Shown here: piece by piece, positions 27,001 through 30,000 of the stretch
Layout: each line of letters begins with the position of its first letter
Position numbering within the stretch: position 1 is the stretch's first letter
From: Escherichia coli
GTDB taxonomy: Bacteria > Pseudomonadota > Gammaproteobacteria > Enterobacterales > Enterobacteriaceae
Strand: one strand, 5' to 3'
DNA length: 64,000 nucleotides
Assembly (NCBI RefSeq): GCF_050920415.1
Contig: NZ_CP169310.1
Program-made: the position numbers

Positions 27001-30000
27001 AGAAAAAATAGCGGTTTTGCTGACACCAGTCTGCGCAGAAATGCGCGGGTACGACAGTGACTCGTCAAATCTCAGCTGTAGCACACGCGGGATTAATTCC
27101 GGATTATCTGCCAGTACCGCCTTTCGTGCATTCATCTTAAATGTCCTTTTACTGCGAAAATGGACATTGGTATCGGAAACAGGAAAGGGAGGCGAAAGAC
27201 GGTGAAGCGCTTACCATCAAGGCCAAGGGCGGTTAAGATATCAAAGTGAAATGAGTGCCGCTCCGATTAAGTGAACGGTATTTCACTGGTATCATTTTTT
27301 ACTGCCTCATCCGGCGAAAAGATGCTTGATAAAGAATTAATCTCGTGAATATATATCACGAGTATATACTTTATCTCTGACATCCATTAATTCATCTGTA
27401 ATTCTGTTCGCGAGTATAATGTCTGACTTTTTTTTGAATACAGGCAATTCATTGACTAATATTAAATCACTTACTGTTTTATTTTGCAATATTGGTTCAT
27501 ATATAATAATAGATATGTCTCTTGACTTTAGTTGACGGATGATATCCATAACGGCAGACTCACGGAAGTTATCTGAACCATTTTTCATAATAACTCGATA
27601 AAAACCCACTACTTTATGTTTTTTTTCCAATACTCTCTGTACAATAAAAGATTTACGTGTATCGTTTGCTCTCACTGTAGCAGTAATAATATCGCAGTGT
27701 ATATTTAGTTTATCATAGTTTGCTTTCAGTTGTTTCGTATCTTTTGGCAGACAATATCCACCATAACCAAATGATGGGTTATTATAATAATCACCAATTC
27801 TTCTATCCAGACAGACACCTCTGATTATATCTTTAGTGTTCAGCCCCGTAATTTCAGCATAGGTATCAAGTTCATTGAAAAATGCCACTCTTGTAGCGAG
27901 AAAAGCATTGGAAAATAGTTTTATTGCTTCAGCTTCTGCAGGCTCTGTGAACAAAACGGGTACATCCCTTTTCATTGCAGCATTTTTCATAATACTGGCA
28001 AAATGCCTCGCGCACTCTGAACGCTCTCCGATAATAATTCGAGATGGATAGAGATTATCATATAGTGCTTTCCCTTCACGTAAGAATTCTGGCGAAAATA
28101 TTATTTTGTCAGTGCAATATTTATGTCTGACTTTTTTTGTAAATCCAACAGGGATCGTTGATTTAATGATTATCACTGCCTGTGGATTAAATTTTACCAC
28201 ATCTTCTATAACTGACTCCACAGAAGCAGTATCAAAGAATCCTGTATTAGGATCATAATCAGTTGGAGTAGCAATTATAACATAATCAGCATCTAGGTAA
28301 GCTTCACTTTTATGCGTGGTTGCTTTAAAACAAATATTCCCATTTTGGAATACCTCCCGTATTTCATCATCATCAAGCGGTGAAATTCGTTTGTTCAACT
28401 GCTCAACCCTAATGGCATCAATATCAAATGCCGTCACATTATGATAACGTGCAAGAAGTAGTGCATTGGATAACCCAACGTATCCAGTTCCTGAAACGGT
28501 AATATTCATATTTCACACCATAAAAATAACGATTATTCAGTTAAATTTTTATTTCTACTTCTAGACCGACTGAATATGCAGGGGAACTGCGGGGAGAATT
28601 TTCAGTAGATGATGCCCGAAAACGCTCTGATGGCATAAACATCCCTAGCAATAGCTCAGTTTTTATATTTTTACTAAATTCGTAGCCCCAGATAAGATCT
28701 ATTTCACTCCCGAGATCCAGAGTAGAACTATTGTCATAACGGGACTTCAGGTCTGGATCATGAGAAGATAAAAAATCCCTGTCTGATTGTCTATAATAAT
28801 GATATACAAGATCCAGTGAACTGCTTGGGGATATATCCATTCCAGTGCCAACCGTCAGGATACGTATATTTGTCAACTCTGGAGATAATGTATTACCATA
28901 AATACTGAATTTAGTATTTCCACCAAAGCTGGCTTCATTCGACTGCAATCCGGTCTGATGATATTTTTTACTGGCTATGGCGTAACCCAGAGTAAAGCGG
29001 CTGCGCGATGGACTGTTATGAATCCAGGTAAGCCCTGCATCAATTACCCTCCCCTGATATTTTTTTTCGGATTTTTCTGCATACATTCCTCCGACCTCCA
29101 GCCAGTGCCGCCATCCCGTATCCGATGTACTGTGGGAACGTATCCCGTAAAAAGACTGACGCTCATATACATCATGCGTGTTTTTATTTACAGCAAAATA
29201 AATACCGGTATCCCAGTCCTTTTCCACACTGTACTGCAAAAATGCAGATTGTACGGATATCACACTTTTGTTACGTGTTGTATCATCAAGCAAATCTCGC
29301 TGCCAGTAATTCACACGTCCTGCCACCATCTCCACCTGCCAGTCATCTTTTTTCCAGCGCCCCCATATACCATCAAGATTTTCATCAAAAAGCCATTCTC
29401 TGACATCGCGGTACAGCCACCGCCCGGCTCGAATTTCTGCTCCGACTTCACGCAAACTTCCCCCTATATATCCCTGAGTCAGTTCCAGTCGGGTTTTATG
29501 TTCTTCTGGTTTACCGGAATCCCTCCTGGTTTTGTTTTTCAGTTCAGCTTCCGCCACACCATACAGAGAAGACTTTCTGGCAATCTCAATTCTTAAACGA
29601 TATTGTGGCTCAAATTCATGTCGGTTTTCCTGCTTTTGTCCCTTCCTTAATGTTCTGTTCCGCCAGCTCTCGCCTTCCAGCTTCATTGTAGAATGAAACC
29701 GTATCAGTTGTTCCCGGTTACTTCTGTCCCCGGACAGACTGTTTTTTTTTGGACGAAATAACTCATTGTCAACAGACTCTGAAGCCTGTACCGGAACTAC
29801 TCCACAAACAAAAAACAGAAGAAAATAACCACAGAATCGACCGGAACCGTTTCTGAACATAATTAAAAATACTCCATGCACTTTTCACAATAAGCAAGCA
29901 AAAGTAGGGTGGTATGCTTCCGCCCCGGAATTCGGGTACTCAAAAAAATATGCCGGGCCAGTGATAACAACCGGAACCCTTCCGTTTCTTTCACTGTTAC

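Follow-up and report, generated by a model that had tools for sequence, protein, structure and literature searches.

An A9 homopolymer in a plasmid-borne gene for an AlgE-like outer-membrane barrel of Escherichia coli is probably an incidental product of lysine codons

Introduction

Vibrio cholerae O1 carries runs of A in two O-antigen genes, wbeL (A8) and manA (A9). Phage-escape variants occur at both, reversion takes place in vivo, and A8 alleles were found in 2/37 strains (Seed et al., 2012; PMC3441752). Poly(A) tracts near the 5' end are enriched in prokaryotic genes and have been proposed to be general gene-inactivation devices, and inlA of Listeria monocytogenes uses one (Orsi et al., 2010; PMC2831843).

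The behavior of such tracts depends on their length. The indel rate of E. coli rises exponentially with homopolymer length (PMC8510543). At nine nucleotides, a large share of the bacterial genomes analyzed begins to show selection against coding A/T runs (PMC1088944), and runs of 9A or 9T are prone to transcriptional slippage in many bacteria (PMC1088944; PMC5574713). Insertions made during transcription in E. coli are concentrated in A/T runs and also rise exponentially with their length; sampling of the E. coli coding transcriptome extended to runs of at most 9 nt (PMC5574713). Ribosomes slide slightly on A9 or A10 and robustly on A11, and consecutive AAA AAA codons are found in thousands of cases in E. 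coli genes (PMC4363877). AAA-AAA is reported to promote −1 frameshifting in E. coli vectors (PMC1851650).

Here we analyze an A9 tract near the 5' end of a gene for an outer-membrane protein on an E. coli plasmid. The tract is probably a by-product of coding for two adjacent lysines that was recently lengthened by a synonymous change, and at most a weak hot spot for mutational or transcriptional slippage.

Results

The tract-bearing gene encodes an AlgE-like barrel

The gene is located at 28541-29860 on the minus strand of the window, by which we mean the entire 64,000-nt stretch of DNA analyzed. It encodes a 439-residue member of the Alginate_exp/AlgE β-barrel family, as indicated by its ORF, a Pfam match, the alignment of homologues, PGAP annotation and an AlphaFold2 (AF2) model compared by Foldseek. 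The Pfam match to PF13372 (Alginate_exp) covers residues 66-431 of the 446-residue translation from an upstream GTG, with an E value of 1e-23 and a score of 84.2 bits against a gathering cut-off of 25.2. The AF2 model, made from 20 homologues, has a pLDDT of 72.7 and a pTM of 0.71. It contains a β-barrel that begins at residue 53 and comprises 19 DSSP strand segments. In a Foldseek search of the PDB, the top 17 matches are all Pseudomonas aeruginosa AlgE, 3rbh among them, with E values of about 1e-17 and TM scores between 0.67 and 0.76. A phmmer search of the barrel protein against PDB sequences returned chance antibody matches only. Nothing but the Pfam match and the fold comparison reveals the kinship to AlgE.

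The reading frame is open over 439 codons from the ATG at 29860, and spans 28541-29881 if counted from the GTG. The true start is the ATG. It is located 2 nt past the TAA stop of an upstream kinase gene and is preceded by a GGAG 11 nt upstream. Homologues align from the methionine at 29860. All of them begin with a hydrophobic stretch, after which comes a linker that varies in length and sequence. The first 26 residues, MFRNGSGRFCGYFLLFFVCGVVPVQA, followed by SE, are predicted to form a Sec signal peptide (29783-29860, minus strand). The prediction is based on a hydropathy peak at residues 10-23, a V-Q-A motif and the N-termini of the homologues. Residues 27-52 (29705-29782, minus strand) form a variable, disordered linker that holds the tract. 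The pLDDT is below 50 at residues 1-48 of the model, the first strand begins at residue 53, and the linker is unalignable among homologues.

Some database records place the start of this gene elsewhere. In the RefSeq record of E. coli GB089 and several others the coding sequence begins at an internal ATG for Met59 (29684-29686, minus strand), chosen by PGAP. This gives a 381-residue product without the signal peptide and leaves the tract 'intergenic'. Near-identical DNA is annotated by PGAP as a 439-residue coding sequence in three other plasmids. We considered the 381-residue products as a sign of frameshifting and rejected this, the long frame being open in 14/14 such loci inspected (7/7 new drafts, the GB089 match and six complete plasmids). 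The two lengths reflect the choice of start site by PGAP and involve no frameshift.

The gene belongs to a plasmid-borne glycan-type operon

Upstream of the barrel gene is a gene for an APH-like kinase (29863-30876, minus strand; stop codon at 29863-29865). The closeness of its stop to the barrel start suggests translational coupling. Downstream, 31 nt past the barrel gene, is a UDP-glucose 6-dehydrogenase gene (ugd; 27337-28509, minus strand), on which a frameshift in the barrel gene could plausibly exert polarity. The neighbors of the barrel gene together comprise a glycosyltransferase (GT), two GT4 enzymes, an MsbA-like ABC exporter, two APH-like kinases and Ugd, and the same gene order is found at two other loci (L003 and L024).

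The synthase-dependent alginate operon, with alg8, alg44, algK, algG, algX and algL, was not found around the barrel gene. Without these partners, and with other neighbors, the exported substrate is not alginate. NCBIfam searches of the operon proteins gave no equivalog match above cut-off. Those of Ugd and the MsbA-like protein fell below it, and Ugd matched a generic nucleotide-sugar dehydrogenase subfamily. A literature search on the operon or the plasmid returned nothing specific.

Over the segments 28400-30000 (1.6 kb) and 54300-55250 (951 bp), the window matches plasmid pCFSAN004181P of E. coli GB089 with 100% identity. The locus occurs in 17/5426 complete E. coli genomes, on large plasmids only. 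The PLSDB copies are classed as conjugative; replicons were inspected in three of them and are IncFIA/IncFIB. The host molecule is an E. coli virulence plasmid.

Position of the tract and effect of a slip

Direct reading of the plus strand gives CTG, then TTTTTTTTT, then GG. The T run occupies 29742-29750 and is exactly nine bases long. On the coding strand this is an A9 run at nucleotides 111-119 of the coding sequence, in the codons CCA AAA AAA AAC for P37, K38, K39 and N40 (residues 44-47 if counted from the GTG at 29881). The tract is 11 residues beyond the predicted signal-peptidase site between VQA (residues 24-26) and SE (27-28).

Slips at the tract were simulated. Loss of one nucleotide (A8) yields a 51-residue stub and gain of one (A10) a 47-residue stub; a stop is reached after 12 codons in the −1 frame and after 8 in the +1 frame. 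The sole downstream in-frame restart lacks the signal peptide. A preliminary description of this DNA had recorded the nine T, the PKKN codons and their position just after the signal peptide, all of which the direct read confirms. It had also stated that a single-base slip truncates the protein near its start, in agreement with the stubs of about 50 residues. Its assignment of the gene to an outer-membrane protein is upheld by the Pfam match and by the AlphaFold barrel with AlgE as best PDB match, and its glycan-type operon is borne out by the neighboring genes.

The tract varies by substitution at its edges

We read 31 copies of the tract base by base. They comprise 17 RefSeq complete plasmids (12 identical to the window, the rest being L007-L011), three further plasmids from PLSDB (L012-L014), seven NCBI drafts (L015-L020 and L022) and four metagenome or SRA contigs. 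One of these contigs (L002) is metagenomic and 98% identical to the window; the other three (L003-L005) belong to an 82%-identical lineage and stand for 24 contigs. Twenty-two copies have A9 (CCA AAA AAA AAC). Five have A8 as CCG AAA AAA AAC, three have A8 as CTG AAA AAA AAC, and one has A7 (CCG AAA AAA AGC). Alleles differ within the tract only by base substitutions at the edges of the run. Tract-length variants due to indels were found in 0/31 copies, and every ORF is in frame. These assemblies are consensus sequences, in which minority variants inside a culture are hidden.

The ninth A depends on a synonymous polymorphism at 29750, the third base of the Pro37 codon on the minus strand, where an A yields the codon CCA and a run of A9, and a G yields CCG and A8. 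The G occurs in L009-L011, L014 and L019 and in both outgroups (L002 and L003-L005), and the outgroups also match the A8 alleles at 29792. Judged by the outgroup states at these two positions, G at 29750 is ancestral, and A9 is derived from A8 by one synonymous G>A change (CCG>CCA).

Tract conservation was not found among the homologues. Sister alleles have A8 or A7, and in more distant homologues (39-54% identity) a Lys-Lys pair is mostly missing from this position. One homologue with the operon in the same order (L024) has six lysines in the linker, encoded by AAG AAG AAA AAG AAG AAA.

Frameshifted copies were not found beyond one artefact

The protein cluster at 90% identity has 69 members, and intact 439-residue members are encoded on about 434 contigs. 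The products predicted for slips in each allele (three −1 peptides, two +1 peptides and three 408-residue +1 bodies) were compared for exact matches with about 15 billion protein sequences. Since PGAP gives no protein for frameshifted pseudogenes, this look-up under-samples NCBI drafts. Just one −1 peptide was found, on one 3.1-kb contig from SRR18191496. Compared to the window, this contig lacks one nucleotide in each of seven homopolymers (G3, A9, G5, A6, A5, A8 and T6); these deletions also break the kinase gene. With seven such deletions in 3.1 kb, it was rejected as a real frameshift allele; the frameshift is a sequencing artefact.

Truncated members of the cluster (P0071 and P0075-P0078) are broken elsewhere, with ...RPKKNSLSGD... 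intact. An E. coli homologue of 365 residues (P0003) was considered as a frameshift allele and rejected, being cut by the end of its contig. A pattern scan of JGI metagenome contigs, allowing 8-14 variable bases between the conserved flanks, gave no matches.

The same plasmids offer an internal control. A10 runs occur twice in an HTH/GyrI-like regulator gene (54342-55190). In one of 18 complete plasmids, the changes A10>A9 and A8>A7 together split the gene. The first A10 run carries an in-frame 3-nt deletion in 2/18 plasmids and is interrupted by substitutions in 1/18. Length changes at slightly longer runs are thus detectable in this sample, and none is seen at A9.

Codon usage accounts for the tract

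The window contains four A/T runs of at least 9 nt and fourteen of at least 8 nt. Markov models of order 1, 3 and 5 predict 1.3, 7.1 and 4.7 runs of at least 9 nt, respectively. When synonymous codons were permuted within the gene in 5000 trials, a run of at least nine A was regenerated at the tract site in 42%. In the 8-gene operon, 1.24 A/T runs of at least 9 nt are expected and one is observed. Neither the synonymous shuffles nor the operon-wide count revealed an excess of the tract over the expectation from codon usage.

The gene uses AAA for 19 and AAG for 6 of its 25 lysines. It has a second run, an A8 at 29060-29067 (minus strand) in the region GAA AAA AAA TAT, which marks A-runs as a compositional trait of the barrel gene. 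Two A8 runs are present in the neighboring ugd.

A weak hairpin adjoins the tract

A pattern scan identified a weak 6-bp hairpin, TCTGTC-CCCG-GACAGA, at 29723-29738. On the plus strand, the hairpin and the T9 fit the pattern of a terminator. In the mRNA, the hairpin starts 5 nt after the heptamer A_AAA_AAA, in the order of slippery heptamer, spacer and hairpin. The hairpin alone has a folding energy of −6.8 kcal/mol, and folding z scores are −0.1 to −0.9 relative to shuffled sequences.

We rejected a programmed −1 frameshift or transcriptional slippage site, as the shifted frames end after 12 and 8 codons and give no conserved or extended product. A role of the hairpin as a programmed frameshift stimulator was likewise rejected, given its 6 bp and folding no better than shuffles. 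A rho-independent terminator on the plus strand was rejected on its weak stem, the 3-nt gap, the absence of an upstream plus-strand gene and the lack of conservation. We judge the hairpin to be incidental in both readings.

Discussion

An incidental tract in a linker

We consider it likely that the A9 tract arose as a by-product of encoding Lys-Lys. Two lysines in the preferred codon AAA, preceded by a proline codon that ends in A and followed by an asparagine codon that starts with AA, would be sufficient to give A9. The linker that carries it, placed behind the signal peptide and ahead of the barrel, is disordered and poorly conserved, and is probably dispensable. The ninth A probably results from a recent synonymous G>A transition in one plasmid lineage. 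Like any A9 in E. coli, the tract would be expected to undergo somewhat more replication indels and RNA-polymerase slippage than its surroundings. Occasional null mutants would be expected, with a stub of about 50 residues and probably polarity on ugd, together with a small fraction of out-of-frame transcripts. We infer slippage rates for the tract and a lack of selection for switching. The tract is probably not an evolved or maintained on/off switch.

Several points weigh against regarding the tract as incidental. A9 ranks among the longest homopolymers in E. coli coding sequence, which makes it a true hot spot compared with the remainder of the gene. In V. cholerae, such tracts in the surface-glycan genes manA (A9) and wbeL (A8) serve as contingency loci or sites of mutational escape (PMC3441752), and inactivation has been proposed as a general role of 5' poly(A) tracts (PMC2831843). 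In addition, the most frequent allele is A9, the derived one; in principle, selection might have brought this about.

A contingency locus

The strongest competing explanation is that slipped-strand mispairing at A9 reversibly switches the export channel, and ugd by polarity, keeping the population heterogeneous for a surface glycan targeted by phage or immunity. The length of 9 nt, which is borderline for a hypermutable repeat, the position at the 5' end of the gene and the surface-glycan operon are all consistent with it, and a slip would give a clean null. Precedents are V. cholerae manA (A9) and wbeL (A8), with A8 alleles in 2/37 strains (PMC3441752), and the 5' poly(A) enrichment in prokaryotic genes with the case of inlA (PMC2831843). 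However, indel alleles number 0/31, the intact protein is found on about 434 contigs, and the lone frameshift is an artefact. Sister alleles have A8 or A7 and distant homologues lack the tract, the A9 itself is young and separated from A8 by one synonymous change, and codon usage fully explains it. E. coli is proficient in mismatch repair, which strongly suppresses 1-nt slips. We therefore regard a contingency locus as unlikely.

The preliminary description had viewed A9 as an on/off switch for the export channel. Our data do not support this, as there are no length variants among the 31 copies, no conservation and no excess over codon usage. The comparison of homologous loci that it proposed was carried out, and at the assembly level the outcome speaks largely against the switch: no copy varies in length, A8 and A7 have arisen by substitution with the gene intact, and the distant homologue L024 has an interrupted run of lysine codons.

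A more specific proposal is that CCG>CCA, from A8 to A9, might have been favored in E. coli with STa and F4-like fimbriae, since it would permit a more frequent reversible shut-off of the channel and, by polarity, of UDP-glucuronate supply in the face of glycan-specific phage or host antibody, similar to V. cholerae manA and wbeL. We consider this rather improbable. If true, the tract would belong to the very small number of phase switches in E. coli that are driven by a homopolymer. Phase variation of a surface glycan encoded on a plasmid of toxigenic E. coli would then bear on phage susceptibility, serology and colonization.

Other explanations

The tract might instead lower expression without heritable change. 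Stuttering of RNA polymerase on A9 or spontaneous −1 slippage of the ribosome on A_AAA_AAA, singly or combined, would divert a fixed fraction of products out of frame and reduce the output of the channel. Runs of nine A/T are slippage-prone and insertions rise exponentially with run length (PMC1088944; PMC5574713), −1 frameshifting at AAA-AAA is reported for E. coli vectors (PMC1851650), and a small hairpin is present 5 nt after the heptamer. Yet both shifted frames stop after 8-12 codons with no alternative product, and the weak hairpin (−6.8 kcal/mol) does not fold more stably than shuffled sequences. The A8 and A7 sister alleles still encode the same protein, which indicates that slippage has not been conserved at any particular level, and ribosome sliding is slight at A9 (PMC4363877). 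Such damping is improbable as an explanation, and any effect of this kind would be a side effect and not a function.

An antisense intrinsic terminator, in which the hairpin at 29723-29738 and the CTG-T9 stop plus-strand transcription from the fdn/IS66 side, is flagged by a simple terminator scan. However, the 6-bp stem has 3 G-C pairs only and a 3-nt gap before the T run, its folding energy is no better than that of shuffles, and there is no co-directional gene within 3 kb upstream. Two changes in the stem produce A-C mismatches on the plus strand in the 82% lineage, and the T run is 8 or 7 in other alleles. We find this reading very improbable. An assembly or sequencing artefact, with a true length other than nine, is scarcely credible: homopolymers are error-prone and one public contig has A8 among many homopolymer deletions, but A9 is identical across many independent assemblies, laboratories and platforms and keeps the 439-codon ORF open.

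On the present data, the tract is mainly of practical importance. It is a likely site of sequencing and assembly errors, as one public contig illustrates, and a likely site of occasional null mutations. It also lies in a stretch that is unannotated in some RefSeq records, where the Met59 start loses the signal peptide.

Comparison with known systems

The locus resembles V. cholerae wbeL and manA in that a γ-proteobacterium carries eight or nine A in a surface-glycan gene, a 1-nt deletion truncates the product early and the host is proficient in mismatch repair. In V. cholerae, indels arise under phage selection, revert and are present in 2/37 isolates, whereas here indel alleles number 0/31 and the length of the tract is not conserved. 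Similar to inlA of L. monocytogenes, the A-run is near the 5' end of a surface-protein gene and a frameshift leads to a very short product. In inlA, frameshift alleles arose independently at least two times and the switching frequency was measured; nothing comparable was observed at A9.

The slippage sites of Thermus thermophilus dnaX and of IS elements (Baranov et al., 2005; PMC1088944) also consist of nine A on the sense strand of a coding region. At those sites slippage reaches a conserved extended ORF or restores a disrupted one. In the barrel gene the frame is already intact, and the shifted frames end within 12 codons. The encoded protein itself is a homologue of AlgE, the alginate export porin of P. 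aeruginosa (PDB 3rbh and 4afk). It matches PF13372, its model is a barrel of about 18 strands, and AlgE is its best Foldseek match, at an E value of 1e-17 and TM scores of 0.69-0.76. It differs from AlgE in its identity of about 16% and in its setting, which contains none of the partners alg8, alg44, algK and algX.

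Homopolymer runs in the plasmid

The HTH/GyrI-like (AraC/Rob-type) regulator gene (54342-55190, + strand) is a stronger candidate for phase variation than the A9 tract of the AlgE-like barrel gene. The regulator gene adjoins the F4/K88-like fimbrial operon (about 42-52 kb, - strand) and contains two A10 runs (54396-54405 and 54808-54817, both + strand) as well as an A8 run. Among 18 complete plasmids, CP012500.1 carries an A10 to A9 change together with an A8 to A7 change, which split the gene. The first A10 run has an in-frame 3-nt deletion in two of the 18 and is interrupted in one. 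Homopolymer error in PacBio sequencing may account for the length differences in the A10 and A8 runs.

Two further runs were observed. Upstream of the HTH/GyrI-like gene, another regulator gene with an HTH domain (WP_042966194.1; 52987-53811, + strand) has a C9 run (53587-53595, + strand) close to its 3' end. The gene for WP_000726553.1, a 306-aa 'hypothetical protein' (11968-12888, + strand), has an A9 run immediately after its ATG (ATG and run, 11968-11979, + strand), encoding M-K-K-K. This run equals that of the barrel gene in length and is even nearer the start codon.

Sequencing and annotation artefacts

Over its whole 3154 nt, the public Logan contig from SRR18191496 contains seven 1-nt deletions, every one in a homopolymer of 3-9 nt, and these break up three genes. 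Because of such deletions in public contigs, exact-protein look-ups may return artefactual 'frameshift alleles'.

RefSeq/PGAP calls for the barrel gene disagree on its start (29684-29860, - strand). The long form has 439 aa (WP_000489502.1, WP_042966210.1, WP_000489500.1). The short form, called in E. coli strain GB089 and others (WP_052318704.1, WP_236927345.1), has 381 aa from Met59 and lacks the signal peptide; it cannot work as an outer-membrane protein. The underlying DNA is near-identical in both sets of records.

Five weak terminator-like patterns (hairpin plus T-run) are found in 29300-30200, compared to 0.9 expected from shuffles. Their stems measure merely 5-6 bp, and they are probably a by-product of the T-rich antisense sequence.

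The operon and its surroundings

The operon containing the barrel gene (27337-37515, - strand) is flanked by plasmid cargo with many degraded IS elements scattered through it. This cargo includes the heat-stable enterotoxin gene sta1 (about 17619-17837, + strand), a formate dehydrogenase-N operon carried on the plasmid (fdnG, fdxH, fdnI; 21834-26430, + strand) and an S6-family (SPATE) autotransporter peptidase (38594-42433, - strand), in addition to the fimbrial operon.

The barrel gene's operon is uncharacterised and is conserved in an 82%-identical lineage (contig L003, 1-8537) and on the contig of a distant homologue (L024, 53-9422). An NCBIfam search of its proteins found no equivalog, and a literature search on it found nothing. 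It encodes a GT, two GT4 proteins, an MsbA-like ABC exporter, two APH-like kinases and the AlgE-like barrel, with Ugd also part of it in the window and L003. In L024 both kinases are fused into a single 771-aa protein. An AlgE-type channel is here combined with kinases and an ABC exporter, and neither Alg8/Alg44/AlgK nor an OPX/PCP pair is present; this combination matches no textbook route of polysaccharide export.
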